Below, in pieces: positions 1,789 through 59,948 of a stretch of 64,000 bases of DNA. The DNA lies in the NCBI GenBank assembly GCA_964352875.1, contig CAYGTP010000002.1, positions 4,244 to 68,243 on the forward strand, written 5' to 3'. The notes below the pieces were generated by a model. It saw only the letters and a program-made list of their open reading frames with translations, made no database searches and was not told the DNA's origin. Each line of letters opens with the position of its first letter. Positions within the stretch are counted from its first letter, which is position 1. Source of the stretch: an uncultured Candidatus Saccharibacteria bacterium. Its GTDB lineage: Bacteria; Patescibacteriota; Minisyncoccia; Phycocordibacterales; UBA918. The position numbers and the translations under genes were made by a program.

Positions 1789-1865
1789 AGAGTGAAGCGA
1801 CTATAAAAATGGAAGTACTCTTGGGGTGACTATGGCGAACTTATGTCGAAAACTGCCGACTGCAG

Positions 1866-1903
1866 AAATAACACAATTAATTTCGAAATTAATTGTGTTA
1901 TTT
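1866..1903. promoter_or_regulatory. 38-bp perfect palindrome AAATAACACAATTAATTTCGAAATTAATTGTGTTATTT (copy 1 of a two-member family)
   Basis: Exact reverse-complement symmetry checked base by base; intergenic, 140 nt upstream of the gene at 2044. Confidence 0.8.
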
Positions 1904-2043
1904 TGCTGTTAATACCACATATCCTACGATTAATCATAGGATTCGTGGTGTTGACAGCCGGCAGTGCCCTTGTTCGGCACCTGCTATTATAGTATTGATG
2001 GGAACGATGTAAGAAATTGTCGTGATTTGGCTGCACCAAAACC

Positions 2044-3912
2044 ATGACGCAAAGCTTTAATACTCCCAAAACCAGCATACAGAGCGTTATGCTCTATCAG
2101 ATTGTCTATCGCAGCCGTTTCGTATGGTACGCAGTTTTCTTATTGATTGTCGTTTTTTTAGTGCAACCAATTGAACAAGCGGTCGCTGCTGAAGTGGGTG
2201 AAGAGGAACCAGCCGAAGAAGCACCTGCTGTTGCAAATGAGCCTGATGTAGTATCCACGCAGGCACCTGAAGCGGTAGAGGAAGAGATAGTAGATGAAAT
2301 AGAGGTAGACGATGAAATAGAAGTCGTTGAGGATGACACTTCTACAGAAACAATTGATACACCAAACCAAAACACTGCTATCACTGATGTAGTGCCTGAA
2401 CCTAATGCAGCTGATTCAGTTGAGGAGTCCGAGTATCCAGCTGACAATAGCGAAGATACACAACCGAAGGCTACCGGTACTGTCGTTACGACTGTAGAAG
2501 GAGATAGTAGTACTGAATCAACGGAGTCTGACAGTGGCGAATCAATTTCTACTGTAGCAATTGATGCAGCTAGCACCAGCGCTACCACAGCCCTGAGTAC
2601 AACAACAACCAATACTGGCGATAGTACTGTGGGTGGTGGTGAAACAGCTAACTCAGAAGTGGAGTCAACGACTGCAACTAGTACTGCAGCAACCACAACT
2701 GTTGAAACTACCTCAGTAACTGATGAGGGTGAAACCCAGAATGTAGATGAGGTGGTAGAAGTTGTCAGCTCTGATGCAACTGACAATGCAACTACTACCG
2801 TACTAAATGAACTTCCAGACATCGAAGACACAATAGCTACTACTACGGTAATACAACCGCCAGTTGTGGTTGACTCATATGTGGGTGAGTTTGAGTTTAA
2901 TGCTAATCAATGTTTTGAAGTCGGAGACGGTACATTTTATTGTAGTAAAGACACAAGTAAGACAGTCGAAACAGTAATCGAAGACGATCTATTTGCCGCA
3001 CCAGACGCTGACGGTGATTTAGAAATCTATCTCACCATCAATGGTGAAACCCAAAAAATCACTGATAATCAGTTAGACGATTCGGCCCCGCAGTTTGATA
3101 GTCAGTCAAATACTATGGTATGGCACCGACTGGTGAACGATCGGTATCAAATTATTCAATACAATTACGCCACGCAAGAAGAAACTCAATTAACTGACGG
3201 TCGTTTTAATAACATGGAACCGAGTGTGTACGGGGATTATATTGCTTGGCAAACCTGGGATGGACAAGATTGGGAGATTGCGCTCTATGACGGGGAGTTA
3301 AAAGAAATGATCACCAACAACAATGTGCCTGATATTGGTCCGATGATCAACGACGGTTACGTCATTTGGAATGCGGTCGGGGCTGCAGGACAAAAACAAG
3401 TCCTACTATATGATTTGGCCACTGAGCAGACCGAAGTGATTGATGATGCTGATGGGGGAGCTGTCAGTAACCCACGGTTCATTTTGGTATACGATGCGGA
3501 GTACGACAATGGCGATGTGGTAACGAGAGGTTACGACCCAGACACTGGCCGAGTTGAGCCACTGTCAGCGATCCCAGGGCAGTTACCAAAAGAACTCCCG
3601 CCCGTTGATCAGACCGGAGAAACTAGGGCCTTGATTGCCAACAAAGGTAGTTCTGGTCGTGAAGATTCTCTTGACTTGGGTGACTTTGACATCGAAACTG
3701 AACCAGAACCAACGGCCAGTACTACTGTTGCGGCCGTGGTTGCTACTTCGACGCAAGTAGTGCAGCCACCGACTGAATTAATTATTGAGAAAATTGATTT
3801 TTCTACTACCACAGAAACGATTGCGAGCAGTACACCAATCGACCCAGCTGAAATAATCGAAGACTTAATTATCCCACCTCTCCAAGGCACAACTTCAGAC
3901 GAAGCGCGGTAG
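2044..3912 (+). CDS. membrane-anchored acidic (D/E/T/S-rich) surface protein with beta-propeller-like repeats
   Basis: N-terminal TM YAVFLLIVVFLVQPI; long E/D/T/S low-complexity tract; then repeats of the TolB/PD40 flavour (YGDYIAWQTWDGQDWEIALYDGE, GYVIWNAVGAAGQKQVLLYDLAT); S/T-rich C-terminus. Confidence 0.6.
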   Translation: MTQSFNTPKTSIQSVMLYQIVYRSRFVWYAVFLLIVVFLVQPIEQAVAAEVGEEEPAEEAPAVANEPDVVSTQAPEAVEEEIVDEIEVDDEIEVVEDDTSTETIDTPNQNTAITDVVPEPNAADSVEESEYPADNSEDTQPKATGTVVTTVEGDSSTESTESDSGESISTVAIDAASTSATTALSTTTTNTGDSTVGGGETANSEVESTTATSTAATTTVETTSVTDEGETQNVDEVVEVVSSDATDNATTTVLNELPDIEDTIATTTVIQPPVVVDSYVGEFEFNANQCFEVGDGTFYCSKDTSKTVETVIEDDLFAAPDADGDLEIYLTINGETQKITDNQLDDSAPQFDSQSNTMVWHRLVNDRYQIIQYNYATQEETQLTDGRFNNMEPSVYGDYIAWQTWDGQDWEIALYDGELKEMITNNNVPDIGPMINDGYVIWNAVGAAGQKQVLLYDLATEQTEVIDDADGGAVSNPRFILVYDAEYDNGDVVTRGYDPDTGRVEPLSAIPGQLPKELPPVDQTGETRALIANKGSSGREDSLDLGDFDIETEPEPTASTTVAAVVATSTQVVQPPTELIIEKIDFSTTTETIASSTPIDPAEIIEDLIIPPLQGTTSDEAR

Positions 3913-3932: not shown

Positions 3933-6900
3933 ATGAGTACATGGTTTAAACATAACCGGCTTTTTAACTGTGGTCAAAAGCTTATCACAGGCTTTTTACT
4001 TTGTTTGCTACTATTTTCAGATGTTGTACCGCTCTTATTGTATGGTCCACTGAGCTATAACAAAATTGAGGCGGCCGAAGCACAAATCGATGACTTGGCT
4101 AGTGGCGCCCAAGCTGAACATATTCAAGCTGGTGCCAATACTGTATTTATAGATGACCAGACGGGGTATAAATTTTATGTTGAATCAAATGGTCGGTGCT
4201 TTTATAAAAAAACTACTAATGGTGGAGCTTCGTGGGGGAGTCAAACACAGTTTGATGATGATCCCAATTGTACGAGTCCGGTAGTGTGGTATGACCGATG
4301 GACGCCAGGTGACACTGGCAATTATATCCATATAACAACGCTAGCGATCGGAACTGGTGCTGAAAATATTAATTATAATCGTTTAGATACCGCAGATAAT
4401 GACGCGTTGTTGATGGGTAGCTCGCCAGTAAATATTTCTTCCACAACTATTACAACATTGAGTTTAGGAGCAGGCAACAAACAGGCGATGACTAAAGGGA
4501 CCGATGGTACGATCTACGCTGCCATTAATGACAACGGCGGGTCCCCGGTAGTTGAGTGTTCAGCTGATTGTCAGCTAGAGGGTAGTTGGAGTGCAACGGG
4601 AGTTTCACCAATGGATCTTTCGAATGACTTTTTATTACTGCAGCCAATGCTGGGGGATAATATCATGTTGATTGTTCGCGATGTGTCTGCTGAGGATATA
4701 GAGTATCAGATTTGGAATAACGCTATTTGGGGTGGAGCTTGGAATACCATTGATGCTAATGCATTTGATAACACTACCTATGACGTTGGTATGTCTGCAG
4801 TTACCCATCCTGAAACCGGTGACATCTATCTTGCCTATGTTACAGACCATCAAACCTTAGGGACCGATGATGATATACGCACAGCAAAATACACAGAAAG
4901 TTCTGGTCTATGGACCAATACGGCAGATGTCGTCACTGACGACAGTAAAGGGCTCCTCAGTGTTGCCTTAGCGCTTGATGCTAATACAAGTGATGTGTAT
5001 GTAGCGTATGCAGCTCGCACCACACCAGGTACCGCTAATAGCGCTAATGTGTATTGGGCAAGCTCGACGGCGGCAATGAGTAGTTGGAGCGGGGAGCAAG
5101 GACCGGTTAATAGTGGGAGCGATAATAACTACGGCCTTTCGTTAAATCATTATTCAGACGAGCGAATCCACGCGTCATGGTACGATGACGCTTCGCGTGA
5201 TGTGTTGAGTGACACTATTGCAGATATCACGCCAGTTACTGTCGTTACAGCAACCGGCACACAACGTGCGACGGTACGGGCCAGTACATCAGCAACTTAC
5301 ATTGGTGGGGCGTTTGTCATTAAAGAGAATGTCACAACGAGAAATGTAACTAGTATTACAATCACTGAGCAAGGTACAATAGACGGAGCAACTGCAATTG
5401 GAAATATTGCGCTCTTCTATGATATTTCGACCACTTCCCCGTACAATTGCAGTGAAGACTCATACCAAGGCAATGAGCCACAATTTGACGTCACTGATAC
5501 GAATGGATTTTCAGGTGCTAATGGAATCGCCAGCTTTTCTGATCTTGTGGCTATTTCACCTACTGACACGCTGTGCGTCTATCCAGTGGTAGAGGTTTTA
5601 AAATCTGCCAATGACGGCGATACTATCGATATTACTATTACGAACCCAGCCACTGACGTGTTGGTTGGTGGAAGTGTGACAGCAGTACCGTCGAGTGTGA
5701 TTTCTATTACTGGCAGTACCACTGTGCGTGATGATGTGCTGACGCAGACCCACTATCATTGGCGACAAGATACGGGTAGTGAAGCGCTCTCACCGTCCGC
5801 AACCGGTGGTATAGAAGATACCCCAATTAGTGCTTTGCAGACCGAAGTACCTCGACGACTCCGCATTGGGCTGTCAAACGATGGTTCGACCACAACGTTT
5901 CCGACTACATTTCGGCTTGAGTATGGCGTAGCGGCACCAACCTGCAATGATGTCGGGACGTGGATTGATGTTGCGGAGGCGGATGATGATTGGAATATGT
6001 TTGATTCTAGTAATCTTACCAACGGAGCTGATACCACAGACGTGGCAGTTGGGCTCGGAGGGGTATCGCCAGAAAATAACTTCTTCCTTACACCCAATGG
6101 TGGCGTCCGCGATACCGAATCTGAGACCGGCAGTATGCAAGTAGATTTTGATGAATACACTGCCCTTGAGTATTCGATTGTCGCTTCAACTACGGCCACG
6201 GAAGGAAATACGTATTGCTTTCGTGTGTCGGATCAGGGTCAACCAATTGAACAGTACGATGTGTTGCCACAAGTGACTATTTCAGCAGATGTGCGGGTTC
6301 GAGCCACTGGTACCCAGGCAGTCTCAGCTGATATCCCAACTGATAATCTCTATATCGGAGGTGCTTTTACCATTACCGAAAATGTTTCCAGTCGTGATGT
6401 TACAAGCGTCACATTGACTGAAGTTGGCACGGTTGACGGTGCTGCTGGTGTGACTGACATTCGATTATATTATGATCTTGATACGACGTTCCCATATAAC
6501 TGTGCGAGCGAATCATTTACTGGAAATGAATTGCAGTATGGAGCAACCTCGACAGCGTTCTCGAGTGCCAACGGATCAACTACGTTTACTGCCACAGTGG
6601 GGATTAGTACTACCAGTACACTCTGTCTCTATCCAGTACTCGATATCACACCAGATGCTACCGATGGGGAGACGGTGGATGTGATTCTCAGTTCTGGTTC
6701 TGGTGATGTTGTAGTGTCTGGCGGGGGGTCGGTAGCACCAACGACACCAATCGACATAACTGGCTCCACGACCCTCAATGGCGCGATTGTGACGCAGACA
6801 CACTACCACTGGCGAAATGATTCAGGGAGTGAAACTGGTGCCAGTTCAGCAACTGGCGGTATCGAAGATACGCCACTGACAGATTTCGATTTAGGAGCTG

Positions 6901-9900
6901 AAATCCGTCTCCGTGTTGGTGTATCAAACGAAGGAGCAACCACGTCGATTCCAAAACGTTACGGCCTGGAATATGGTATTAAGCTCGATGAATGTTCTGA
7001 TGTTACCGTGTGGATTGACGTTGCTGATACAGCTGACGCCTGGGACATGTTTGACTCTTCAAATCTTACTAATGGAGAAACGACCACTGATATTAGTACG
7101 ACCACGGGTGGGGTGAGTGATGAAAACGCTGTCTTCTTAGGCAGTAATGGTGGGGTAGTTGATACGGAATCTTTTACAGCTACTACTACTCTTAGGAATA
7201 ATGAATATACTGATTTTGAATACAGCATCACGTCGACAGCCGACACGCTGTATGACAGTACCTATTGTTTCCGTGTGACGCAAAACGGTGTGAGTCTACT
7301 AGCCTATAACACGTATCCTGAAATCACTATGACTCCCAAACGAGACTTCAGAATCCAACGCGGTCAAGTTGTATTAACTGGCACATCAACCACATTACTA
7401 GCAGGGGTTGATTACGTTGCTCCGAGTGCCTCAACTAGCGCGTTTGTCCGGATTACCAACGCACACCATACCGGGGCTGGTCGTAATGATTTGGGTGGTA
7501 ACCAAAACGCCAGAGACTATAGTTCGTATATTGAAAATCCAGAAAATCTAGAAACTAGCATTACCTTTACTCGTAGCCAAGTTAACCCAATCCAAAATAC
7601 TTTTATTTCTTGGGAGCTAGTTGAGTTTGTGGGTGATCCTGGGACAGATAACGAAATGATTGTGCGCGACCATGGCACCATCAATTACAGTGCGTCAGAA
7701 TTAGTAGCCACTGGTACTGCGCTCGGTACAGTTGATACCGATGGTGACGTAGTGGTATTTATTACCGCCCAATCGCATCCAGGAAATACTAGAGCAGAAG
7801 GATATGCTCATCAGTCAACCAGCGAGTGGAATAGTGCCACCGGTGAACCGGTGTTCAGGCGGAGTGCAACTGGTGGCAATGAAGGATTTGTCAGTTATGC
7901 CGTAGTTGAATTCACTGGTATCAACTGGAAAGTGCAGCGAGTTGAACATGATTACGCAGGCACAACTCCAGGTGAGCCAGATTTGGTTCCGATTACTCCA
8001 GTCAATAGTCTTAATCGAACGTTCTTACATACACAGAAGCGGGTTGATGGGAATGGGTTGATGACGGACTTTGGGCACTTGGTGTGGGTGTCGAGTATGG
8101 GGGCGCTGTCGTTCCAGCTAGAAGCTAGTGCTGCAACCACCACAGTCAATCATGTCTCGGTGGCATGGGTAATTGAAAATACGCAAACCAGTGACGGGGC
8201 GATGACAGTGCAACGTGAAGGGAGTACCTTCACTGGAGGTGCTGACGTGCAGACTCGTGCTATTGGTATCTTGACTGAACTTGAAGCTACCAACAATGCG
8301 TCAATTTTTGCAGTTACCAGTCATAGTCAAACAGTAAATAACATGCCACGAGGTTTGGCGAGCTTTTACATTGCTTCAACTACAGCCTATGAAATTTACC
8401 GTGCTGAATCAGCTGGTATTTTATCGTACTGGACCGAGGTTGTGTCATGGCCAGTAGCAAACATATCGGTGCGACAAAATTATTATAATTTCTACGTCGA
8501 AGATGGTCAGCTTGATCCACAAGACCAGTGGCCAGTAGGGCCAAGCAGTGTTGGGGAAAACGCTCCTATCACTGCTTTAGATGAACCTCTCGGAGAAGGT
8601 GAGCGCATTCGTATTAGAATGAGTACTCGGATTGGTAACGCTAACTTACCAGCGGGATTGTTGTCAGTTAAGCTCCAATATGGTGTACGAACAGCAACTT
8701 GCTCGGCAGTGGGCGACTGGTTCGACGTCGGTCAATTTGCCAGCAGTACGATATGGCGCGGGTATGACGTCGCAGCATTAACTGATGGCGTGGCACTTTC
8801 AACCGAACCCCCCGGAATCGGAGATTTGAATCTTTCAGTGTCTGACGTGTCTGGTAGTTACATTGAAGCGAATCCTTCGGTAGCTAACCCGTTTGATGTG
8901 CAAGATGGAGAAGACGTGGAGTTTGATTGGGTAATCGAGCATAATGGAGCAAATAGTAGTACATTTTATTGTTTCCGCATGGTAAATAGCGACGGTACAC
9001 CACTGGATGGCTACTTTAATTACCCAGAATTACGTACCGCTGGATTTACGCCCGTTGGCGGTGATTGGCGTTGGTACGATGATGCTGAAAATATCACACC
9101 AAGTTTAGCGTTGGCAGCAGAGAATGTAGCTCCAACTGATATCGCAAATTCCAATACTATCGTGTTGCGTACGGTCGTTGACGAGCTAAAAGTCGTCCAA
9201 GGCAATAACGTTAAATTTAAGCTGCAATTTTCGCAATCACCAAACTTCTTAACCGCAAGTGATGTAGTTGCGAGTAGTACGTGCCAGGCTGATTCATTGT
9301 GGTGTTATGCCGACGGAGGTGCGAATGATAATACTGTCTTGGCCAGTTCCACGTTAGGTCAGGCGGACAGTTGTTTTGGTGGTGTGGGTAATGGCTGCGG
9401 TAGCTACAATGAATCTGGGACATTAGTTGCAGGCTTGACCCATGCTGCAGGCGCAGCAGCTGAATACGCCTTTGTTTTGCAGCACGCTGGTGCACGCGCG
9501 AATGGGGTATATTATTTCCGTCTGTATGACGTAACAAATGACGCTCCATTAATTGCATCCAGTACCTACCCATCGCTAGTGACCGAAGGAGCGCAACTGG
9601 TATTTGGGGTGGCCGGGTTGCCAAGCGCAACAACTACTGAAGGTGTTGTTACTGATGTAGCAAGTACCCCTGATGCTATTAATTTTGGCACCTTAGGACT
9701 TAATATGGCAATCGAAGCAGCTCATCGACTTTCAGTTGATACTAATGCCACCGAAGGGTATCAGGTATTTGTCTTTGCTACCCAAGACCTGATCAATAGT
9801 TACGGTACCGCTATTGATCCCATCATCAGCACCAACGAAGTGCCAGCGGGCTGGTCCAGCGCCTGTCCCGTTGAGGCTACTGGTTGCTTTGGCTACCATG

Positions 9901-10109
9901 CTGGCGACGATATCTTATCGGGGGCATCCACTCGATTCTCAGCCAATGACAGTTTTGCCGCCTTAACTACGGTGCCGGCCGAAGTACTGTATAACCCCAC
10001 TCCAATTGATGAGTACCATGATGTACTATACAAGATTGAAGTACGTGAAGGACTACCAGCCGGTGACTATGAAACTGACATCGTCTATCTCGCCGTTCCA
10101 GTATTTTAA
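3933..10109 (+). CDS. giant secreted repeat protein (2058 aa) with a possible N-terminal BNR/Asp-box-like region and four copies of a Cys/Trp-marked module
   Basis: Signal/anchor LLCLLLFSDVVPLLLYG; Asp-box-like TTNGGASWG; internal 350-aa tandem repeat plus two further degenerate C-terminal sub-module copies sharing R.R.........Y.GV....C.....W.DV ..... YCFR....G..L..Y..YPE. Confidence 0.7.
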   Translation: MSTWFKHNRLFNCGQKLITGFLLCLLLFSDVVPLLLYGPLSYNKIEAAEAQIDDLASGAQAEHIQAGANTVFIDDQTGYKFYVESNGRCFYKKTTNGGASWGSQTQFDDDPNCTSPVVWYDRWTPGDTGNYIHITTLAIGTGAENINYNRLDTADNDALLMGSSPVNISSTTITTLSLGAGNKQAMTKGTDGTIYAAINDNGGSPVVECSADCQLEGSWSATGVSPMDLSNDFLLLQPMLGDNIMLIVRDVSAEDIEYQIWNNAIWGGAWNTIDANAFDNTTYDVGMSAVTHPETGDIYLAYVTDHQTLGTDDDIRTAKYTESSGLWTNTADVVTDDSKGLLSVALALDANTSDVYVAYAARTTPGTANSANVYWASSTAAMSSWSGEQGPVNSGSDNNYGLSLNHYSDERIHASWYDDASRDVLSDTIADITPVTVVTATGTQRATVRASTSATYIGGAFVIKENVTTRNVTSITITEQGTIDGATAIGNIALFYDISTTSPYNCSEDSYQGNEPQFDVTDTNGFSGANGIASFSDLVAISPTDTLCVYPVVEVLKSANDGDTIDITITNPATDVLVGGSVTAVPSSVISITGSTTVRDDVLTQTHYHWRQDTGSEALSPSATGGIEDTPISALQTEVPRRLRIGLSNDGSTTTFPTTFRLEYGVAAPTCNDVGTWIDVAEADDDWNMFDSSNLTNGADTTDVAVGLGGVSPENNFFLTPNGGVRDTESETGSMQVDFDEYTALEYSIVASTTATEGNTYCFRVSDQGQPIEQYDVLPQVTISADVRVRATGTQAVSADIPTDNLYIGGAFTITENVSSRDVTSVTLTEVGTVDGAAGVTDIRLYYDLDTTFPYNCASESFTGNELQYGATSTAFSSANGSTTFTATVGISTTSTLCLYPVLDITPDATDGETVDVILSSGSGDVVVSGGGSVAPTTPIDITGSTTLNGAIVTQTHYHWRNDSGSETGASSATGGIEDTPLTDFDLGAEIRLRVGVSNEGATTSIPKRYGLEYGIKLDECSDVTVWIDVADTADAWDMFDSSNLTNGETTTDISTTTGGVSDENAVFLGSNGGVVDTESFTATTTLRNNEYTDFEYSITSTADTLYDSTYCFRVTQNGVSLLAYNTYPEITMTPKRDFRIQRGQVVLTGTSTTLLAGVDYVAPSASTSAFVRITNAHHTGAGRNDLGGNQNARDYSSYIENPENLETSITFTRSQVNPIQNTFISWELVEFVGDPGTDNEMIVRDHGTINYSASELVATGTALGTVDTDGDVVVFITAQSHPGNTRAEGYAHQSTSEWNSATGEPVFRRSATGGNEGFVSYAVVEFTGINWKVQRVEHDYAGTTPGEPDLVPITPVNSLNRTFLHTQKRVDGNGLMTDFGHLVWVSSMGALSFQLEASAATTTVNHVSVAWVIENTQTSDGAMTVQREGSTFTGGADVQTRAIGILTELEATNNASIFAVTSHSQTVNNMPRGLASFYIASTTAYEIYRAESAGILSYWTEVVSWPVANISVRQNYYNFYVEDGQLDPQDQWPVGPSSVGENAPITALDEPLGEGERIRIRMSTRIGNANLPAGLLSVKLQYGVRTATCSAVGDWFDVGQFASSTIWRGYDVAALTDGVALSTEPPGIGDLNLSVSDVSGSYIEANPSVANPFDVQDGEDVEFDWVIEHNGANSSTFYCFRMVNSDGTPLDGYFNYPELRTAGFTPVGGDWRWYDDAENITPSLALAAENVAPTDIANSNTIVLRTVVDELKVVQGNNVKFKLQFSQSPNFLTASDVVASSTCQADSLWCYADGGANDNTVLASSTLGQADSCFGGVGNGCGSYNESGTLVAGLTHAAGAAAEYAFVLQHAGARANGVYYFRLYDVTNDAPLIASSTYPSLVTEGAQLVFGVAGLPSATTTEGVVTDVASTPDAINFGTLGLNMAIEAAHRLSVDTNATEGYQVFVFATQDLINSYGTAIDPIISTNEVPAGWSSACPVEATGCFGYHAGDDILSGASTRFSANDSFAALTTVPAEVLYNPTPIDEYHDVLYKIEVREGLPAGDYETDIVYLAVPVF
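5235..6287 (+). repeat. intragenic repeat unit 1 (about 351 aa) of giant protein
   Basis: VTVVTATGTQRATVRAS...YCFRVSDQGQPIEQYDVLPQVTISA aligns colinearly with unit 2 at roughly 50% identity (TQTHYHWR, ATGGIEDTP, WIDVA, MFDSSNLTNG conserved). Confidence 0.8.
6288..7330 (+). repeat. intragenic repeat unit 2 (about 348 aa) of giant protein
   Basis: DVRVRATGTQAVSAD...YCFRVTQNGVSLLAYNTYPEITMT; tandem with unit 1. Confidence 0.8.
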
Positions 10110-10124
10110 GCTACTATACACACT

Positions 10125-11132
10125 ATGCGTTTATTTCTCATTACATTACTCATCCTTGCAAGCATCACGCCAGGGGTGATTAGTGCGTACTCAGTGAGCC
10201 CGCTACTCATTGATCGCGAGACGGAAGGTCGCGATATTATTAAGCAAACTATCACGCTGTCAAATCCGTCTAATAGCCCAGCTAGAATTTATGCCTCAGT
10301 CCATGAAGTGGCACTTGATGAAGGAGGCACTATTAAAGAATTTATTCCGCCTTCAGAGGTAGACAATAAAACTGCTATTACCAGTTGGATAGAAATTACT
10401 CGTGGTCGGATAGTTCTCGAGCCAGGTGAAGTGAGGGAAATCCCCGTGACTATCCGCATGAATCCTAATGCAGCACCAGGGCAGTATCACGGGTTGATTG
10501 GGTTTGGAACTGGTTCTAACCGCACAGATGCGGAAGCTCGGGTACTAGCCGGCACAGCACCAGCGACTATTGTCAGGCTGTCGCTTAACGAAAAGCGAAC
10601 AGAATTTCTCAGGCTTAAAAATTTTATTATTAATAGATTTGTCACAGATGATACTGACGGTGCTATCTCGTACGAAATTGAAAACCCAGGTGAATCCCCA
10701 GTCACGCCAACTGGCGAAATAATTTTTTATGACAATCGTGGCAACGAAGTCGGTGCTACCGCAGTAAATCCTGAAGGGGTAGTCGTGGAGGCAGGGAAGT
10801 CTGCCGCCTTTACTAGCTCGGTTCCAGATAATCAGTCGCTCGGTCGTTACAAAGCTTTTTTGTCAGTTGAGTACGGTAAAAAACAACTCGCTTCAGTGCA
10901 TGACACAGCTTTCTTTTATATGATTCCATTTAAACAGCTTATAATGCTATTTGGACTATTTCTGCTGCTCGCTGTATTGTTAACGTGGTGGCTCCACCGC
11001 CGGATGTACCGCGCTCATGGAATAGCACATCCTGATCACGAAGTAGTGCCAATGTACATTCGGAGCGGTTCAGATGCCCCTAAATTTGATCATGATATCG
11101 ACCTTAAGAAAAAACCTGAAGAAAACAACTAG
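10125..11132 (+). CDS. DUF916/DUF3324-like (CscA-type) cell-surface protein with C-terminal TM anchor and basic tail
   Basis: Signal peptide; post-signal YSVSPLLIDRETEGRDIIKQTITLSNPSN pattern recalled from Gram-positive DUF916 proteins; C-terminal TM LIMLFGLFLLLAVLLTWWLHRRMYR. Confidence 0.5.
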   Translation: MRLFLITLLILASITPGVISAYSVSPLLIDRETEGRDIIKQTITLSNPSNSPARIYASVHEVALDEGGTIKEFIPPSEVDNKTAITSWIEITRGRIVLEPGEVREIPVTIRMNPNAAPGQYHGLIGFGTGSNRTDAEARVLAGTAPATIVRLSLNEKRTEFLRLKNFIINRFVTDDTDGAISYEIENPGESPVTPTGEIIFYDNRGNEVGATAVNPEGVVVEAGKSAAFTSSVPDNQSLGRYKAFLSVEYGKKQLASVHDTAFFYMIPFKQLIMLFGLFLLLAVLLTWWLHRRMYRAHGIAHPDHEVVPMYIRSGSDAPKFDHDIDLKKKPEENN

Positions 11133-12738
11133 TACTCTCTTGCTTGGAGGTCTATTGTTTGTCCTGTTACCGAGCCAAACTGTTCTAGCGCAGGAAACGT
11201 TGACACTCAGCGTGACACCGACGCTATTTGAGATGTCAGCTGAACCAGGGCAAGTATGGAATAGTAGCATTAAGGTAGCTAACCCAAATCAGTATAAGTT
11301 AACGGTCTATCCTTCGGTAGTAAATTTTGCGCCGCAGGGTGAGCGGGGAATGGGTAAATTTTTACCAGTATTTGACACTGGAACATCAGGCGCCACCCTC
11401 GCTGAGTGGATTACCGTTTCGCCCGACCCTGTAGTGATAGAGCGTGAAAAAAGTGCAGTCATTCCTATTTCAGTAGTTGTTCCACCCGACGCTGCGCCAG
11501 GAGGACATTTTGCCGCTATTTTAGTTGGTACCAAACCGCCAGAGGCAACTGGTGAATTAGCTGTTCGAACCAGCCAGATGGTCACGTCGTTATTTTTTGT
11601 ACGAATTGCCGGAGATGTGATAGAGGAGGGTACAATTCGTAGCTTTAGAGCAGCTAATTCTTTTGTGGATGCCCCGCAAGCCGATTTTGAGTTACGTTTT
11701 GAAAATAAAGGTAATGTACATCTGCAGCCCCAAGGAACAATTATTATTACCAATATGTGGGGCGAAGAGCGCGGACGGATTCCGATTAATCACGATACGC
11801 ACTTTGGTAACGTACTGCCAGATAGTGTTCGTAATTTTGAATTTAGTTGGTCAAGTGCTGCGGGTTTTTCTGAAATTGGCCGATACAAAGCAGTCGCAAC
11901 GTTGGCTTATGGTCGCGATGCCCGGAATTTTCAAACGAGAGAGATTGCGTTTTGGGTAGTTCCCGTTAAAGAAGTGTTGCTCACCATTGCACTATTGGTT
12001 GCTATTGCTTGGTTTGTGAGCTGGGTAGTAAAAGCGTATATTCGTCGCATGTTGATTCTCTCTGGTATCAACCCGGATGACGCTAAGCGCCGCGCTCGGG
12101 TACAGCGAGATGTGGCTGGGGCGCACACGGTTGAACTTCGCAACTATCGCACTATCAGTGCGCCGGTTCGCTCGGGTTGGTTAGACTTACGTCAGCAGTT
12201 GGAAACAGTTAAAGCAGTGAGTGGTTATATGCGAGTGCTCGGACAGTTTGCTTGGCAGTATCGATTATTCTTCATAGGAATAATTGGATTTATGGTAATT
12301 GGAGTGATTGCCTGGTGGTATGCGATTGGGGCCACTGCTTCACGTGATTATCAGGTTACTATTGGCACAGAAGAAACGGCTGTTACATTGACCGCAGAAG
12401 AAATTTACTATAACCAACTCAGGCAAGTAGAGCGCAGTCCATTGGTAGTTACGCAATCCACTTCTACTCCAATTTCAGTCGTGAATGTCAGTGGTGAAAA
12501 CGGTACCGCGGCCCAAGTGCGGTTAATACTAGAAAAAGCTGGATACGTTGTAACGGACATGGGTAGCGATAGTGAGCGAAATGATCGACGTACTGTGGTG
12601 GTCTATAGTGTCGATGTTCAACAGCAGGCAGCTGCTATTAGTCGCGAACTGGATGGGGCTTTGCTCTCAGCTAGTACCGGCAGTAGTACCAACGAAATCA
12701 TTATTTATGCTGGCCAAGACAGCATTGTGTCCGAATAG
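11074..12738 (+). CDS. DUF916-like extracellular domain fused via TM segments to a C-terminal LytR_C-like domain
   Basis: Signal peptide; LTLSVTPTLFEMSAEPGQVWNSSIKVANPN (same pattern as upstream gene); TM LLTIALLVAIAWFVSWVV and LFFIGIIGFMVIGVIAWWYAIG; C-terminal ISVVNVSGENGTAAQVRLILEKAGYVV...TVVVYSVDVQQQAAAISREL matches the LytR_C consensus; overlaps the upstream gene in a different frame. Confidence 0.55.
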   Translation: MPLNLIMISTLRKNLKKTTSTLLLGGLLFVLLPSQTVLAQETLTLSVTPTLFEMSAEPGQVWNSSIKVANPNQYKLTVYPSVVNFAPQGERGMGKFLPVFDTGTSGATLAEWITVSPDPVVIEREKSAVIPISVVVPPDAAPGGHFAAILVGTKPPEATGELAVRTSQMVTSLFFVRIAGDVIEEGTIRSFRAANSFVDAPQADFELRFENKGNVHLQPQGTIIITNMWGEERGRIPINHDTHFGNVLPDSVRNFEFSWSSAAGFSEIGRYKAVATLAYGRDARNFQTREIAFWVVPVKEVLLTIALLVAIAWFVSWVVKAYIRRMLILSGINPDDAKRRARVQRDVAGAHTVELRNYRTISAPVRSGWLDLRQQLETVKAVSGYMRVLGQFAWQYRLFFIGIIGFMVIGVIAWWYAIGATASRDYQVTIGTEETAVTLTAEEIYYNQLRQVERSPLVVTQSTSTPISVVNVSGENGTAAQVRLILEKAGYVVTDMGSDSERNDRRTVVVYSVDVQQQAAAISRELDGALLSASTGSSTNEIIIYAGQDSIVSE

Positions 12739-17659: not shown

Positions 17660-17676
17660 TAATTTTAAAAACTGGT

Positions 17677-17711
17677 AAAGAGCCACTTTGACTCCGTCAA
17701 AGTGGCTCTTT
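17677..17711 (+). terminator. rho-independent terminator after gdh
   Basis: AAAGAGCCACTTTGAC-TCCG-GTCAAAGTGGCTCTTT hairpin followed by T. Confidence 0.7.
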
Positions 17712-17839
17712 ACATATAGCAGATATGCTATATAGTAAAAGTAGAAGAGTTCTTTGCGGAACTCTGTTTTGTTTTTCGGCTCTGTGAATTAGTCACAGGT
17801 TATCACTAGTCATGATAACCGAGTCGCAAAAAACAAAAT

Positions 17840-38572: not shown

Positions 38573-38645
38573 GGGCTCGTAGCTCATCTGGTAGAGCGCC
38601 TCATTTGCACTGAGGAGGTAGCGGGTTCAAGTCCTGTCGAGTCCA
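38573..38645 (+). tRNA. tRNA-Ala (anticodon TGC), CCA not encoded
   Basis: Hand-folded cloverleaf: acceptor GGGCTCG/CGAGTCC with G3:U70 Ala identity pair, D arm GCTC/GAGC, anticodon loop TT-TGC-AC, T arm GCGGG-TTCAAGT-CCTGT. Confidence 0.85.
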
Positions 38646-38650
38646 CATTA

Positions 38651-38833: not shown

Positions 38834-38852
38834 CAAGTCCTGTCGAGTCCAC
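38834..38852 (+). repeat. 19-nt direct repeat of the tRNA-Ala 3' end (CAAGTCCTGTCGAGTCCAC), att-like
   Basis: Exact copy of 38628-38646 located 188 nt downstream; an inverted partial copy (rc of 38676-38686 and 38712-38723) lies between them. Confidence 0.8.
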
Positions 38853-38875
38853 CAAACCTGTTGAAAAATCACCTT

Positions 38876-38897
38876 GTTACGTAACATGTTACGTAAC
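38876..38897. promoter_or_regulatory. tandem palindromic decamers GTTACGTAAC-AT-GTTACGTAAC (candidate operator)
   Basis: Two exact copies of a self-complementary 10-mer, 12 nt upstream of the AbrB-like ORF. Confidence 0.55.
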
Positions 38898-38908
38898 AAA
38901 CTGTAGCT

Positions 38909-39070
38909 ATGAAGCAAAAACAAAATATTAGAAAAATAACTCGGGTAGGACAGCGGAGTTTAGCAGTAGTACTACCAGCCGCAATAGTGAAAGAGTTGGG
39001 GTGGCGAGAACGACAAAAGTTGGTGGTAAAGCGAGTAGGGAAGAGGGTGATAATTGAAGATTGGGAGTGA
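38909..39070 (+). CDS. AbrB/MazE/SpoVT-family small DNA-binding protein (53 aa)
   Basis: MKQKQNIRKITRVGQRSLAVVLPAAIVKELGWRERQKLVVKRVGKRVIIEDWE; swapped-hairpin LP..IVKELGW signature; under 60 aa so absent from the ORF track. Confidence 0.5.
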   Translation: MKQKQNIRKITRVGQRSLAVVLPAAIVKELGWRERQKLVVKRVGKRVIIEDWE

Positions 39071-42339: not shown

Positions 42340-42651
42340 ATGTCAGTAATTGAAGAAATTAAAGCCGCTGAAGCGGCAGCAGTACAAACTATCGAAGACG
42401 CCAAAATTGAAGGCGCTCGGCTCGTTGCTGAAGCGCAAACAGCTCAAAAATCAACCCTTGATGCCACCAAAAAGCAGCTTCAAGACATTGAGGTTGCCTC
42501 ACTGCAATCACATCAGGTAGTGATTAATGACAAGCAGCAAAAAATTGCAGCTGAAGCCGCTGATACCGTGGCTGCGTTTGAAACTACAGTCAAGGCTGCT
42601 GCAGGTGCCCATAAAGACTTGATAAAAAAGACTTTTCTCTCAAGTAACTAG
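42340..42651 (+). CDS. V/A-type ATPase small peripheral-stalk subunit (NtpF / subunit G-H-like)
   Basis: 103-aa all-helical A/E/K/Q-rich protein in the first position of an ntpFIKECGABD-ordered operon. Confidence 0.5.
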   Translation: MSVIEEIKAAEAAAVQTIEDAKIEGARLVAEAQTAQKSTLDATKKQLQDIEVASLQSHQVVINDKQQKIAAEAADTVAAFETTVKAAAGAHKDLIKKTFLSSN

Positions 42652-42660
42652 ATACATTTT

Positions 42661-44643
42661 ATGGCAGTTCTCCAGATGCAAAAACTCCGCTTGGTCATAC
42701 ATCAAAACGATGTCAATCGTCTGTTAGAACTAGTGCAACCAAGCGCTGCCGTTGAATTTATTGATACTAATACTGATGATTTGGTTGAGATAGCGGTAAT
42801 ATTTACGCACCAGGAGTTGCTTACCCACGTGCAGCAAGCCATTTTGTTTTTAGGAAATCATGAAGTAGCACCGGGGATGTGGCATACATTGCGAAATGGC
42901 TCTTTTACTACTCTTTCCGAAGCTGACATCAAAACCGCAGCTACTGATACTACGGTTATAAAGTCGTTATTAGAGCAAACTGATACACTGCAAGCCAACT
43001 ATACGGCAGCACAAAATGAAGTCAAAACCCTTACGGATCAAATTGCTGCCCTGACGGCCTGGCAAAGGCTGCCCTTTGCAGTCTCGGATTGCCAAACCAG
43101 CACTACCACCACATATCTCTTGGAATACGTAGGGAAGAAGCCATCGGTAGTAAGTCAGATTGTACAAACCCTTACTGAACGAAGCCAAGAAGCCGAACTA
43201 GCAGTGGTAGCGACGGCAATCAGTGATACACAATTGACCCTGACGGTACATACTGAAACGGTAACGATGTCACAAGTTACTGCACTGCTGGACGACCTTG
43301 AAATAACTATTGCAGCCGACCTCCCAGGTACTGAATTACCTACGATTGAATTACAACGGACACAAGAACGACTGACGAATGCTACCGTATCCTTGGCGGC
43401 TATCTCAGCTCAGTGTGCAAATTTTGCTAACGCTCACCTCCGTGAGCTTAGAATTTGTGGGGAAGTACTCAACTGGGAGCGCGATCGTGTTAGTGCTTTA
43501 GCGACTGCGAAAGCCACTGCCGAAACTACCGTGATGGATGCCTGGGTAGTAGCCGACTATCGCCCGACTTTAGAAAGAGTTATTGCAAATAATCATATAG
43601 CCGCAGTCATTCAAGATCTAGAACTAGAAGCCGATGAAGAACCACCAGTTGAGATTCGTAATTCTGAATTTTTCAAGCCGTTTGAAGTGATTACTAGACT
43701 CTATGGTATGCCGGGTTATAAAGACTTAGATCCAACTGCGTTCTTGGCAGGTTTCTTCTTTCTATTTTTCGGTTTGTCACTTACGGATGTAGGGTACGGT
43801 GCCTTTTTGATGATTGTATCAGTTGGAGTATTAACATTGTTTGTCGTCCCACCAATTGTCCGAACTTTTACAAAACTGTTATTTTTGATGGGCCTTGGTT
43901 CTTTTTTGGTTGGGTTACTCTTTGGTGGATATCTTGGAATTGCACCAGAATCACTACCAGCTGTGCTTCGAGCCATCCAAGTATTTGATCCAATTGGTAA
44001 CCCGTTGCCAGTCTTTTATCTCGCGCTTGGTCTCGGCGTCTTCCAAGTAATGGTTGGTATGGTACTTAAAATATACAGTGAGGCACGTAATAACCGTCTG
44101 GTATCAGGGTTACTGGATCAAGGTCCATGGTTGTTCGTATTCTGTCTGGGTATTGCGTATATTGGGGTAGTGACTGGATACCTCAGTGGTATCACTGAAT
44201 CGCAACTGATCAACCTTATGTACGTCGGGGTAGTACTCATCGTGGTTGCCAGTGGCCGGCACGGAAAGACGTTTTTTGAAATGATCCAAAAAAGTCTCCT
44301 CAGCCTTTACGATAGTATCGGATATTTTTCAGACATCCTTTCGTACTCTAGACTCTTAGCACTTGGATTAGCCACTACTGCACTAGCTTTTGCAGTTAAC
44401 CTTATTGCTGAAATTGTCAGTGACTCAGTGCCATATCTGGGGCCAGTGCTTGCAATCGTTGTGCTCGTTATCGGCCACCTTTTCACCCTGGCCGTGAACA
44501 CACTAGGAGCATTTATTCACAGCGCTCGACTTCAATTTGTAGAGTTTTTTGGCAAGTTCATTAGTGGAACTGGCCGAGAATTCAAACCGCTGGCTAGGTC
44601 CTATCGCTACATCGCAGCCAAGGACGAGTCGTCATCGGCTTGA
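42661..44643 (+). CDS. ntpI: V/A-type ATPase subunit I (a subunit)
   Basis: 660 aa, hydrophilic N-terminal half then multi-TM C-terminal half with the conserved Arg-containing helix region. Confidence 0.8.
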   Translation: MAVLQMQKLRLVIHQNDVNRLLELVQPSAAVEFIDTNTDDLVEIAVIFTHQELLTHVQQAILFLGNHEVAPGMWHTLRNGSFTTLSEADIKTAATDTTVIKSLLEQTDTLQANYTAAQNEVKTLTDQIAALTAWQRLPFAVSDCQTSTTTTYLLEYVGKKPSVVSQIVQTLTERSQEAELAVVATAISDTQLTLTVHTETVTMSQVTALLDDLEITIAADLPGTELPTIELQRTQERLTNATVSLAAISAQCANFANAHLRELRICGEVLNWERDRVSALATAKATAETTVMDAWVVADYRPTLERVIANNHIAAVIQDLELEADEEPPVEIRNSEFFKPFEVITRLYGMPGYKDLDPTAFLAGFFFLFFGLSLTDVGYGAFLMIVSVGVLTLFVVPPIVRTFTKLLFLMGLGSFLVGLLFGGYLGIAPESLPAVLRAIQVFDPIGNPLPVFYLALGLGVFQVMVGMVLKIYSEARNNRLVSGLLDQGPWLFVFCLGIAYIGVVTGYLSGITESQLINLMYVGVVLIVVASGRHGKTFFEMIQKSLLSLYDSIGYFSDILSYSRLLALGLATTALAFAVNLIAEIVSDSVPYLGPVLAIVVLVIGHLFTLAVNTLGAFIHSARLQFVEFFGKFISGTGREFKPLARSYRYIAAKDESSSA

Positions 44644-44672
44644 AGCGGAAATTAACAGTATTATTACACTAA

Positions 44673-45164
<492 letters not shown>

Positions 45165-45166
45165 TC

Positions 45167-45742
45167 ATGAGTACTAACCCTCTCATTACTAAAATCAATA
45201 CTGATGCTAAAGCCAAGGCTGACGCAGTTTTGGTAGAGGCTAAGCAAACAGTCGGTCAGATCGAACAGGCGATGGCAACAGCAGTAGCCGACCTCGAATC
45301 AGTCGCTAAGGACCGTTTAGCAAAACGCATGAAGCAAGCTGAATTGGTAGCGCTAGCCAAAGCAACTCAGGCCGGAAAGTTGGCTTTGCAGCAAGCCAAA
45401 CGATCATATCTAGACGCACTGTTTGCTTCAGTGTATACCGAACTTAGTGAATTATCAGACACTGACTACATAGCACTTGTAACCAGTATTGCTGCTAATG
45501 TGCTGCCAGCAGACTTGCAGACAGTGACCGTAGCTTCCTACCCAAGTAACCGACAAGCTCTCACTGAATCTCTACTTAAGACATTACATATTACTGCTGT
45601 AACTATGCAAGTAGATGATTCTCTTGATGCTGGCATGATACTTGAAACAGCTGACGGAGTGTATGACATTACACTCAATCGCGTATTTAGCGAGCGCCGA
45701 ACTGATTTAGAAATCAAAATTGCCGCATCGCTCAACGCATAA
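45167..45742 (+). CDS. ntpE: V/A-type ATPase subunit E
   Basis: Helical N-terminus then globular C-terminus; operon position; start chosen after the ntpK stop. Confidence 0.65.
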   Translation: MSTNPLITKINTDAKAKADAVLVEAKQTVGQIEQAMATAVADLESVAKDRLAKRMKQAELVALAKATQAGKLALQQAKRSYLDALFASVYTELSELSDTDYIALVTSIAANVLPADLQTVTVASYPSNRQALTESLLKTLHITAVTMQVDDSLDAGMILETADGVYDITLNRVFSERRTDLEIKIAASLNA

Positions 45743-45749
45743 TCTCTGT

Positions 45750-46730
45750 ATGCAAACTAACTACATCTACAGTACCAATCGAGTTACCGCTGTTGCCACC
45801 ACGCTTCTGCAGACAGCTGATATCGAACGTTTGCTCCAAACTACCTCAAGTATGGAGCTAGTAGATGTACTTAAAGAAACGTATCTTGGTGCATACTTAG
45901 ACACAGTTACTGCAGAGCAAGTAACGTCAGCTCTTGAAACAGCCGTCATGGACGCAAAAAGAACAATAGAAACAATTTCACCAGTTAAAGATTTGTTTCA
46001 ATTACTGTGGATTCAACACGATATTCACAATCTTCGCACTTTTGCGAAAGCCACTCGTCATGAGGTGTCGTATAGCGATCTGACTGGACTACTTTCAGAA
46101 CGAGGGCACTATTCGTCAACTGTATTACATAGCTACTTAGAGCGGAACGAGCTAAATCGGTTGCAAACTGGGTGGCAAGAAGTCTACGATCAGGCGGTTC
46201 GACACGTTGCTGATGGAGAGATAGACAAAGTCGATGCGCTTTTTGATCAGCTGTACTTCAATACAATTATACGGCTCGCGACTTGGCACAGAGATGTCTT
46301 CCTTACTGTGTACGTGCGAGCTTTGATAGATTGCTACAACCTTAAAGCAAAGTTGCGCGTCCTACGGTATCCAGCTCTCACTGCCACCACTGCACATGTA
46401 TCAGGCGGCACCTTTGCAGCTTCAGAACTTGAGACTAAAGATCAAGTAAAGCAAGCTGCTGCAGTACTCGGCACAGTTGATTGGGAAGTTGCATTGACGC
46501 AGTATGAAGAAACTGGCAACACCACTGTCTTTGATGTTTGTGTCGACGCCTATTTATTTCAACTAGCAAAACAAGCGAGCTACGATGCATTCTCTTCCGC
46601 TTCCATCGTACGCTACTACCGGCTAGCTGAAGCAAATGTAAGCAATGTGCGTGCAATCATAAATGGTAAAAATAGCCGTATGGATGAAACAATTATCCGA
46701 GCTAATCTGCGACTTGTGTATGACAACTAA
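45750..46730 (+). CDS. ntpC: V/A-type ATPase subunit C (d)
   Basis: about 327 aa all-helical; operon position. Confidence 0.65.
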   Translation: MQTNYIYSTNRVTAVATTLLQTADIERLLQTTSSMELVDVLKETYLGAYLDTVTAEQVTSALETAVMDAKRTIETISPVKDLFQLLWIQHDIHNLRTFAKATRHEVSYSDLTGLLSERGHYSSTVLHSYLERNELNRLQTGWQEVYDQAVRHVADGEIDKVDALFDQLYFNTIIRLATWHRDVFLTVYVRALIDCYNLKAKLRVLRYPALTATTAHVSGGTFAASELETKDQVKQAAAVLGTVDWEVALTQYEETGNTTVFDVCVDAYLFQLAKQASYDAFSSASIVRYYRLAEANVSNVRAIINGKNSRMDETIIRANLRLVYDN

Positions 46731-47064
46731 CCAATACAAAATTGCCATCATTGGTCCCAATGAAACTGTCTCTGGCTTTCGTGCGCTTGGAGTAGATGCA
46801 CTTGATGCAAGAACCGGTAGTGAAGCAATGGAACAACTGCGACAGATCAAAATCAACCGTGACAATGGCGACGGTCCGCACTATGCCGTCGTCTGCATTA
46901 TAGAAGACTTACTCACTGACGTAGATAGCAGTGAATACAGCAAGATTATATCTGGCCCACTACCAGCTGTGATTTCTTTACCCGGTCCACAAGGTAGCCA
47001 GGGTGTCGCACTGGCGCGTTTGCGTCGGCTCGCAGAACAAGCCGTTGGCTCCGCCATTATTTAA
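46720..47064 (+). CDS. ntpG: V/A-type ATPase subunit F
   Basis: KIAIIGPNETVSGFRALGV matches the subunit F N-terminus; overlaps the previous stop. Confidence 0.7.
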   Translation: MTTNQYKIAIIGPNETVSGFRALGVDALDARTGSEAMEQLRQIKINRDNGDGPHYAVVCIIEDLLTDVDSSEYSKIISGPLPAVISLPGPQGSQGVALARLRRLAEQAVGSAII

Positions 47065-47102
47065 ATTTAAAAACGATTATTACTACCAGTAATTATAAAA
47101 GT

Positions 47103-48893: not shown

Positions 48894-48898
48894 TTCAT

Positions 48899-50284: not shown

Positions 50285-50308
50285 TACGATAGAATACAAA
50301 CACTATCT

Positions 50309-54822: not shown

Positions 54823-54825
54823 ATC

Positions 54826-54867
54826 AACCAAGACCCCAGCATTAGATGCTGGGGTCTTGGTTTATTT
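54826..54867. terminator. bidirectional terminator between convergent LamG and RND genes
   Basis: 17-bp perfect stem AACCAAGACCCCAGCAT-TAG-ATGCTGGGGTCTTGGTT followed by TATTT. Confidence 0.8.
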
Positions 54868-59910: not shown

Positions 59911-59948
59911 AAATACCGCAATTAATTTCGAAATTAATTGCGGTATTT
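59911..59948. terminator. 38-bp perfect palindrome AAATACCGCAATTAATTTCGAAATTAATTGCGGTATTT (copy 2); likely terminator hairpin
   Basis: Exact inverted symmetry, 6 nt after the stop of the gene at 59591-59905. Confidence 0.75.

Follow-up and report, generated by a model that had tools for sequence, protein, structure and literature searches.

A sequence that occurs as two 38-bp perfect palindromes in the window (the whole 64-kb stretch of DNA that was analysed) has been copied into unrelated places in several genomes. The two copies stand somewhat better than an even chance of being members of a lineage-restricted, low-copy family of perfect palindromes in the Patescibacteria class Paceibacteria, which is kept symmetric by template switching and serves opportunistically as a 3'-end hairpin. 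Below we describe the window copies and their relatives, the family members that lie in frame within the ung gene, the way in which the two arms change together, and the alternative explanations that were weighed.

Two perfect palindromes in the window

Copy 1 (AAATAACACAATTAATTTCGAAATTAATTGTGTTATTT) and copy 2 (AAATACCGCAATTAATTTCGAAATTAATTGCGGTATTT) each consist of two 19-nt arms that are 100% complementary and joined without a spacer. They have the 22-mer core CAATTAATTTCGAAATTAATTG and the ends AAATA/TATTT in common, confirming the two palindromes and the shared core described in a sequence-only reading of this DNA. The core occurs twice in the 64-kb window, also when up to 3 mismatches are allowed, and was not found in any of 100 shuffles. 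Two positions per arm (A/C and A/G) differ between the copies, each matched in the opposite arm; three compensated substitutions per arm had been counted earlier, but the middle C of ACA/CCG is shared. The copies and their neighbours are as follows.

816 to 1592, + strand: gene of a 258-aa protein whose C-terminus is dockerin/EF-hand-like, next to copy 1 on its upstream side
1866 to 1903, no strand: copy 1, long form with a TCGA centre and arms AAATAACAC...GTGTTATTT
1905 to 1958, no strand: imperfect hairpin adjoining copy 1, 84% complementary
2044 to 3912, + strand: gene of a 622-aa low-complexity secreted/surface protein, downstream of copy 1 and first in a surface-protein cluster
59591 to 59905, + strand: 104-aa ORF with copy 2 at its 3' end, no Pfam/NCBIfam match
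59911 to 59948, no strand: copy 2, long form with a TCGA centre and arms AAATACCGC...GCGGTATTT
60007 to 60585, + strand: gene of a flavodoxin-like-fold NAD(P)H oxidoreductase (PF02525, 6.6e-34), downstream of copy 2

Both copies are intergenic, and their placement by the earlier reading was right: copy 1 lies 273 nt past the stop at 1592 and 140 nt ahead of the ATG at 2044 of the surface-locus gene, while copy 2 begins 5 nt past the TAA (59903-59905) of the 104-aa ORF and ends 58 nt ahead of the ATG at 60007. The fold-energy check proposed in that reading gave predicted RNA hairpins of −19.5 to −21.5 kcal/mol (z −5.9 to −8.2), with copy 1 at −21.5. The predicted DNA hairpins reach −13.3 (copy 1) and −15.6 kcal/mol and are foldable on either strand. 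The imperfect hairpin next to copy 1 has outer arms (AATACCAC / GTGGTGTT, 1911-1952) that resemble the family arms, and is probably a diverged or expanded relative of the palindromes. It is enclosed together with copy 1 by an outer stem ACTGC/GCAGT (1859-1965), resulting in a two-hairpin structure with a predicted fold of −51.6 kcal/mol (z −10.7) for 1856-1965. Searches for half-arms (up to 3 mismatches) and for outer-arm pairs found no further diverged copies in the window beyond copies 1 and 2 and the 1911-1952 hairpin, and nothing convincing as a small ORF or RNA appeared in 1593-1865. At gathering score, Rfam reported two tRNA-Ala genes only across the whole window, with no family for the palindrome; in E-value mode on 1550-2100, copy 1 gave matches at E ≥ 0.25, far under the gathering score and at chance level.

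Both window copies carry a derived A-T outermost pair (G-C, T or A in all other genomes) and a GCA flank on one side, suggesting that they were copied or homogenised inside their own genome. An assembly artefact was ruled out: the palindromes keep reading frames intact and are present in assemblies made independently (NCBI, JGI, ENA and Logan). Taken alone, the window pair is ordinary and would most likely be described as terminator-like repeats.

Family members in other genomes

The family was found at ten further places outside the window, comprising one copy in a Candidatus Paceibacterota MAG, 6 metagenome copies and 3 extra copies at one of the metagenome loci (L021). An exact scan of GTDB with the 20-mer AATTAATTTCGAAATTAATT (one genome per species, 185,579 species genomes) returned 17 loci, 16 of which cease to be palindromic at the pattern edge; because their palindromy stops where the pattern stops, these 16 were rejected as chance matches in AT-rich genomes. 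The remaining locus, L015 in Ca. Paceibacterota MAG AC1.72, holds a perfect palindrome of 40 bp, TGAATACCACAATTAATTTC/GAAATTAATTGTGGTATTCA, with arms GAATACCAC, and its genome is the sole GTDB species representative with a family copy. When metagenomes were scanned with the 22-mer, all 6 matches proved to be perfect palindromes (36-50 bp), four of them on separate contigs of one metagenome, and the arms of the metagenome copies read GAATACCAC, GAATACCGC or GTATACCGC. Family members were retrieved by exact core, and the invariance of the core among the metagenome matches is partly an effect of this search. A relaxed search of the fetched DNA raised the count at L021 to four copies inside 3.1 kb: the long copy, a degenerate one, a half copy and a short form that is perfect over its 34 bp (AAAAGAATACCGCAATT/AATTGCGGTATTCTTTT). 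The long-form consensus is (AAAA)GAATACCRCAATTAAT-NNNNNN-ATTAATTGYGGTATTC(TTTT) and the short-form consensus is GAATACCRCAATT/AATTGYGGTATTC.

The full copies number at least 12 and are mostly intergenic; besides those in the window, they come from one Paceibacterota MAG, 3 further ung loci and 6 metagenome contigs. The possibility that only the two window copies exist, which would have left two terminators of common descent, is contradicted by copies in at least 7 other contigs or genomes. The window has 2 copies in 64 kb and L021 has 4 in 13.8 kb, and the entire L015 genome yielded a single exact-core copy; the copy number of the family looks low in these scans, which covered the exact core genome-wide. 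Four core variants (TCGA, GCGC, short form and degenerate centre) had 0 matches in viral contigs, and these scans gave no sign of a phage origin. As for the window itself, its YchF is ~80% identical to proteins named Kaiserbacteria or Nomurabacteria, which places the host in the class Paceibacteria of the Patescibacteria. The settings of the copies outside the window differ as listed.

L015: directly following the canonical GC-rich rpsT terminator and 132 nt ahead of a desaturase gene
L019, and the short copy of L021: between convergent genes
L020: in frame within ung
L021, long copy: between divergent genes, 60 and 23 nt from their starts
L022: 15 nt past a stop codon, with a T-run on the transcribed strand
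L023: downstream of two canonical terminators 3' of rpoC, amid other perfect palindromes and ahead of dnaG

No recurrent neighbour gene family or transposase was found beside the copies. The genes downstream are unrelated (a surface protein, a flavodoxin-like protein, a desaturase, a primase and one without assignment). An HTH protein beside the L019 copy and IS30 fragments beside the L024 ung were considered as a shared partner and rejected as unrelated to each other, and a TetR gene near L021 is a local feature only. An A-tract precedes 10 of 18 intergenic half-elements (...AAAAG/AATACC), so that the unit often runs A-tract, stem, T-tract; such flanks are present at L018, L019 and both perfect L021 copies. 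The L018 and L022 copies have a 13-nt AT-rich left flank in common. A likeness of copy flanks to the upstream codons of ung was weak and judged unconvincing.

For one sequence to stand at unrelated loci and in unrelated genomes, it must at some point have been copied from locus to locus, whether through transposition, conversion or transfer. In the sequence beside 14 copies there are no target-site duplications, solely A/T tracts extending the palindrome, and no empty site was found; mobility is therefore inferred from the distribution of the copies.

Palindromes in frame within ung

The ORF at L020 encodes a full-length family-1 UDG (PF03167), and the palindrome encodes NTTINFEINCGI in a variable loop that separates the PPSL..YKE and GNLERWA helices. 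Two frames of the palindrome are open, reading NTTINFEINCGI and IPQLISKLIVVF. By fetching the DNA of the nearest homologs via protein, we found the palindrome in frame at the same codons in six orthologs/species, and the ung loci are listed below.

L020 ung: AATACCACAATTAATTTC/GAAATTAATTGTGGTATT, peptide NTTINFEINCGI
L024 ung: AATACCACAATTAATTGC/GCAATTAATTGTGGTATT, peptide NTTINCAINCGI
L025 ung: AATAACACAATTAATTGC/GCAATTAATTGTGTTATT, peptide NNTINCAINCVI
L029 ung: ACCACAATTAATACT/AGTATTAATTGTGGT, peptide NTTINTSINCGI
L026, L027 and L028 ung: AATACCACAATT/AATcGTGGTATT, 24-bp short form with one mismatch, NTTINRGI, of ordinary loop length
L030 ung: decayed short form

The long form adds 4 residues to the protein (NTTIN-FEIN-CGI) and the short form adds none; ung is the only gene known with the palindrome. 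The distant Ung orthologs at L035 and L036 have no palindrome at this site, and the feature is limited to the NTTIN clade. Palindromy is retained at orthologous codons between species that are ~70% identical in Ung, and in pairwise comparison of positions with the same residue, codons are identical at 101 of 107 positions inside the palindrome (94%) vs 1063 of 2111 outside it (50%). The centre hexamer exists in three states among the ung orthologs (TTCGAA, TGCGCA and ACTAGT), each itself symmetric. The AAC/GTT arm variant of window copy 1 is also present in the L025 ung, where the arm change from ACC/GGT to AAC/GTT altered two residues, Thr to Asn and Gly to Val. The L025 and L030 genes are close (80% codon identity at same-residue codons), yet the palindrome is long and perfect in L025 but short and decayed in L030, indicating that the ung palindrome changes fast.

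In its short form, the ung palindrome leaves the loop at its native length and retains I..T.I...IP of the ancestral loop. These kept residues and the native length hint at an origin inside ung, and a loop of ordinary length is more easily reconciled with a palindrome that arose in place than with an inserted one. An element that entered ung would agree with the long form, the outer G...C pair and the intergenic A/T tracts. The same genes contain a second inverted repeat, GGTAGGC-gaa-GCCTACC, with arms of 6-7 nt in the L025 and L030 ung, 18 nt in L020 and 21 nt in L024. Its outer pairs are compensated (CTC..GAG vs TTG..CAA) with altered amino acids, and this second hairpin is an independent sign of arm growth.

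Symmetric change at positions that cannot pair

Twelve long-form copies, nine of them distinct, were aligned with all 19 pairs imposed. Eleven pairs are invariant and 7 have changed on both sides, while none has changed on one side only and 1 is broken in a single sequence. The proportion of paired cells was 97.1% vs 88.5% in shuffles, a value attained by 0 of 500 shuffles, and slid controls produced 0 double changes. There are no G-U pairs in the 171 cells. The innermost pairs (17-19) covary too, and these sit in the loop of any hairpin or cruciform, where they cannot pair; the centre was fixed by the search pattern in the metagenome and GTDB matches, so that its variation comes from the ung orthologs alone. 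The 193 kb of window and loci contain 65 perfect hairpins whose arms reach 11 nt or more, 19 of them loop-free, compared with 0 in block shuffles.

The difference between ACA/TGT and CCG/CGG had been read as compensation under selection for the hairpin. Selection for an RNA or ssDNA hairpin predicts G-U/G-T intermediates, indifference to the loop bases and an orientation to transcription, none of which was seen. Because the unpaired centre covaries and intermediates of the G-U type are absent, the step from compensation to hairpin selection is insecure. We consider it fairly probable that the perfect dyad symmetry, including the ACA/TGT vs CCG/CGG difference, has been maintained at the DNA level by template switching. 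In this mechanism, the palindrome would fold back during replication and one arm would be copied from the other, so that a change in a single arm would be either erased or passed to the opposite arm in one event, and the arms could extend through the loop until the spacer is gone. Template switching at inverted repeats has been described to homogenise arms in one event with multi-base 'compensatory' changes, and also to invert or absorb spacers, expand arms and alter adjacent codons without selection (PMC8794818, PMC8604942, PMC13100816, PMC7202029). Compensation at unpairable positions together with overridden residues is what replication template switching predicts.

The family resembles quasipalindrome template-switch mutagenesis in its two-sided-only changes, its loop-free palindromes and the arm growth in ung. 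However, the latter is a mutation mechanism and not an element, and it leaves the spread unexplained, as template switching has no means of carrying one 36-38-bp sequence to loci and genomes that are unrelated. Nor does template switching alone explain the constancy of the arm ACCRCAATTAAT while the centre changes and synonymous sites are saturated. Arm constancy needs a sequence-specific constraint, recurrent conversion/homogenisation or recent transfer.

A hairpin at gene ends

The locus of copy 2 was compared with its closest available relative, L031, in which YchF is 82% identical and the order RND pump, HlyD-like, small ORF, flavodoxin-like and YchF is the same. Orthologs of the small ORF lie at 6284-6562 in L031 and 6779-7078 in L033, each followed by a GC-rich hairpin: AGGGGCGCGCC-gta-GGCGCGCCCCT at the copy 2 site in L031, and CCCGCGC-aaa-GCGCGGG, 4 nt past the stop, in L033. 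These GC-rich hairpins at the same site suggest that copy 2 sits in a terminator position, in support of its earlier description as terminator-like, and the transcript of the ORF at 59591-59905 likely ends in the copy 2 hairpin. The sequence GTATACTGTAC (59992-60002, with a TATACT −10-like hexamer), common to the window and L031, lies just 5' of the flavodoxin-like ATG and is probably the promoter of that gene. The AAAUA...UAUUU ends of copy 2 match AAAT/ATTT-flanked long perfect stems at two other gene ends in the window (17675-17713 and 54821-54867).

A copy just 3' of a gene could act, in either direction, through a transcript hairpin of ~−20 kcal/mol, as a terminator or as a 3'-end protector. 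Judged from sequence and position, the chance that copies just 3' of genes (copy 2, and probably copy 1 with its partner hairpin) form a terminator or 3'-end protecting structure is about even, with a lower chance for copy 1 than for copy 2. A post-stop or gene-end position is found for copy 2, L022, L019 and the L021 short copy, with stems that are AT-rich and not G+C-rich. In the window copies the AT-rich stems are joined to short U-tracts (UAUUUUG, UAUUUGCAUUU), and a consensus terminator scan called neither copy 1 nor copy 2.

A simpler explanation holds that the copies are merely intrinsic bidirectional terminators sharing descent, in which hairpin and A/T tracts end transcripts. It would account for copy 2 lying 5 nt past a stop where relatives have a GC-rich hairpin, for the L022 copy with its T-run on the transcribed strand 15 nt past a stop, for the A-/T-tract flanks at L018, L019 and both perfect L021 copies, and for RNA hairpins of ~−20 kcal/mol. 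However, canonical terminators already precede the palindrome in L015 and L023, the long L021 copy sits between divergent starts 60 and 23 nt away, the ung copies have no T-tracts, and the scan passed over both window copies. Symmetry of the loop bases and sequence identity across genomes are also left unexplained, and we regard this explanation as unlikely.

Binding sites, REP-like elements and RNA hairpins

The sequence-only reading had also raised the possibility of a dimeric binding site. An operator or dsDNA site for a symmetric dimer, such as that of a global regulator or a parS-like chromosome-organisation site, would agree with the 22-30-bp sequence that is identical across genomes, with dyad symmetry that is exact through the centre without G-T pairs, with nucleotides conserved at synonymous sites in ung, and with copies that precede genes by 24-140 nt in the window, L015 and L021. 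parS sites are known inside genes, with nucleotide conservation at synonymous sites. By contrast, the spacing between half-sites is not constant, with a 12-bp difference between the short and long forms, and the centre hexamer is variable too; the outer arms vary always symmetrically, for which independent recognition of half-sites has no need; and the genes downstream have nothing in common. The orthologous promoter region of L031 is without a palindrome, some copies are degenerate or halved, one is placed within coding sequence (ung), and the L015 genome contains a single exact-core copy. Moreover, a real operator-type site in the window looks different, consisting of two 12-bp palindromes before a MazE-type gene. 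A binding site is thus quite improbable.

We give the same low probability to a REP/REPIN-like or IS200/IS605-type hairpin element that is mobilised in trans, as ssDNA, by a tyrosine (HUH/Y1) transposase whose gene lies at another place in the genome. REPs number in the tens to hundreds, form imperfect palindromes and go together with a RAYT gene that is itself single-copy (PMC3337134, PMC3116915). REPINs show long-lasting vertical persistence (RAREFAN preprint 10.1101/2022.05.22.493013), which counts in favour of this explanation. Like REP/REPIN sequences, the family is short (20-40 bp), dispersed, mostly extragenic and lineage-specific, often in doublets or clusters and often at gene 3' ends, a position from which such repeats can stabilise or terminate transcripts. 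The cluster with decayed and half copies at L021, the doublet-like arrangement of copy 1 and its related second hairpin, and a conserved arm with a variable tip, as expected if a protein reads the stem, all speak for such an element. However, the family is perfect through the dyad centre, whereas REPs have asymmetric heads; neither an imperfect palindrome nor such a head was found, and an adjacent second hairpin occurs at copy 1 alone. One copy lies in a gene and the copy number seen is far under usual REP numbers. No transposase (Y1_Tnp or other) was present among the window proteins scanned against Pfam, and none among the called genes of the fetched loci except an unrelated split IS30 in L024. 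The earlier suggestion of a REP-like family therefore stands as regards a wider repeat family, but the scanned window proteins include no RAYT or other transposase and the copy number looks low. The architecture of a MITE was not found either, as the whole unit is one palindrome without terminal repeats and target duplication.

An RNA hairpin as the functional unit (an RNase III site, mRNA stabiliser or small-RNA element), with base pairing under selection, would be consistent with stable hairpins predicted on both strands and with covarying pairs, but is very improbable given the absence of G-U pairs, the covariation of loop positions, the lack of any Rfam family above chance level, and copies that lie past terminators in spacers that do not look transcribed, in either orientation to genes.

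Discussion

Two further groups of repeats invite comparison. SPRITE is a dispersed repeat that is itself a terminator-like stem-loop with A/T tracts and clusters with other intergenic repeats, and Rickettsia palindromic elements (RPE) are found in intergenic DNA and also in frame within conserved genes, whose products stay intact and gain a surface peptide (PMC10969869). The family is like the pneumococcal SPRITE as a terminator-like stem-loop flanked by A/T tracts, but SPRITE belongs to a different host phylum, is longer and is not perfectly palindromic. It is like RPE as a palindromic repeat found between genes and in frame in a conserved gene. However, RPE measure ~100-150 bp, represent inserted extra sequence and decay with the host gene, whereas the unit described here is 24-38 bp, adds no length to the Ung loop in its short form and keeps perfect palindromy across species. 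We therefore describe the family as short palindromic dispersed repeats outside every named family compared.

A bolder proposal is that a DNA-level process in Paceibacteria, possibly enzyme-assisted, writes, symmetrises and copies palindromes, with an element born in the ung loop that spread and was reused as a terminator. We think this unlikely. If true, it would mean a mobile or copyable element without transposase-type architecture, and a palindrome drive that shapes protein in ung and probably in other genes.

Patescibacteria have small genomes, in which repeats are generally considered scarce. Our literature search did not uncover any account of dispersed repeat families from these bacteria, nor of loop-inclusive symmetric evolution in which palindromy overrides coding sequence in this group. 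For annotation, AT-rich loop-free hairpins at gene ends in these genomes escape standard terminator scans. 'Compensatory' substitutions are usually taken as proof of a selected RNA structure. The palindrome family, with template switching as the reading that we favour for its symmetry, offers a clean natural case in which such substitutions reach positions that cannot pair and override the amino-acid sequence of a conserved enzyme. If this is true, covariation in long perfect hairpins would be unsafe evidence of function, and palindrome homogenisation would have been seen altering a protein loop across species.

Operator-like palindromes and gene content of the window

The features of the window considered here, beside the two 38-bp palindromes (copy 1 at 1866-1903 and copy 2 at 59911-59948), are as follows.

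3933-10109: predicted surface protein of 2058 aa, downstream of copy 1 and following the 622-aa low-complexity protein
38628-38646 and 38834-38852: 19-nt direct repeat of the tRNA-Ala(TGC) 3' end, 206 nt apart
38874-38899: two tandem 12-bp palindromes TGTTACGTAACA
38909-39070: MazE/AbrB-type antitoxin ORF of 53 aa (PF04014)
42340-50944: V/A-type ATPase operon (V_ATPase_I, AC39, A, B and D subunits)
59992-60002: GTATACTGTAC motif, also at 6622-6632 of the syntenic locus L031

Positioned 10 nt upstream of the MazE/AbrB-type ORF, the tandem 12-bp palindromes are a typical operator layout, and this operator-like pair contrasts with the family of copies 1 and 2. The tRNA-Ala(TGC) repeat, at the border of a stretch (36-42 kb) where G+C rises to about 0.50, may be an integration scar. 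The ATPase operon of the window is of the V/A type, whereas F-type ATP synthase genes adjoin the same RND/flavodoxin-like/YchF block in the syntenic relatives L031 (587-838) and L033 (494-6663). Kept in the window and L031 genomes a few bases upstream of the flavodoxin-like gene ATG, GTATACTGTAC may represent the -10 element for a transcript with a very short leader or none. The 2058-aa protein had no Pfam match at E <= 0.001.

Perfect hairpins and clustered family copies

Counting arms of at least 11 nt with a loop of at most 8, we found 65 perfect hairpins in 193 kb of Paceibacteria sequence (the window with comparison loci L015 and L018-L036) compared with 0 in shuffled sequences; 19 of the 65 were loop-free. 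The centre CAATT/AATTG or GCAA/TTGC is common to some unrelated perfect hairpins (L019 1463-1506, L026 9330-9371).

Immediately 3' of copy 1 lies a second, imperfect hairpin (window 1905-1958), whose outer arms AATACCAC/GTGGTGTT match those of the family and whose centre GATTAATC resembles that of the short form, the variant with half-sites 12 bp closer. The predicted fold of window 1856-1965, including an outer stem (1859-1863 / 1961-1965), gave -51.6 kcal/mol. On a single metagenome contig (L021), four family copies occur within 3.1 kb (9551-12680), namely a long form, a perfect 34-bp short form, one that is degenerate and one reduced to its left arm, and divergent intergenic regions hold two of them.

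In-frame palindromes in ung

Further palindromes were found within the uracil-DNA glycosylase gene ung.

L020 233-271 and L024 3555-3599: second long perfect hairpin, at the same ung codons
L020 706-734: third in-frame palindrome, with 14-nt arms and a 1-nt loop
L024 4255-5181: split IS30-family transposase (HTH and catalytic ORFs), directly downstream of the palindrome-bearing ung

No connection was found between this transposase and the ung palindrome. In the second hairpin, arm differences are compensated, with amino-acid changes alongside. At the same codons, L025 and L030 carry a seed, the 6-7-nt inverted repeat GGTAGGC-gaa-GCCTACC encoding VGEAY. This seed has grown in two lineages, expanding to arms of 18 and 21 nt.
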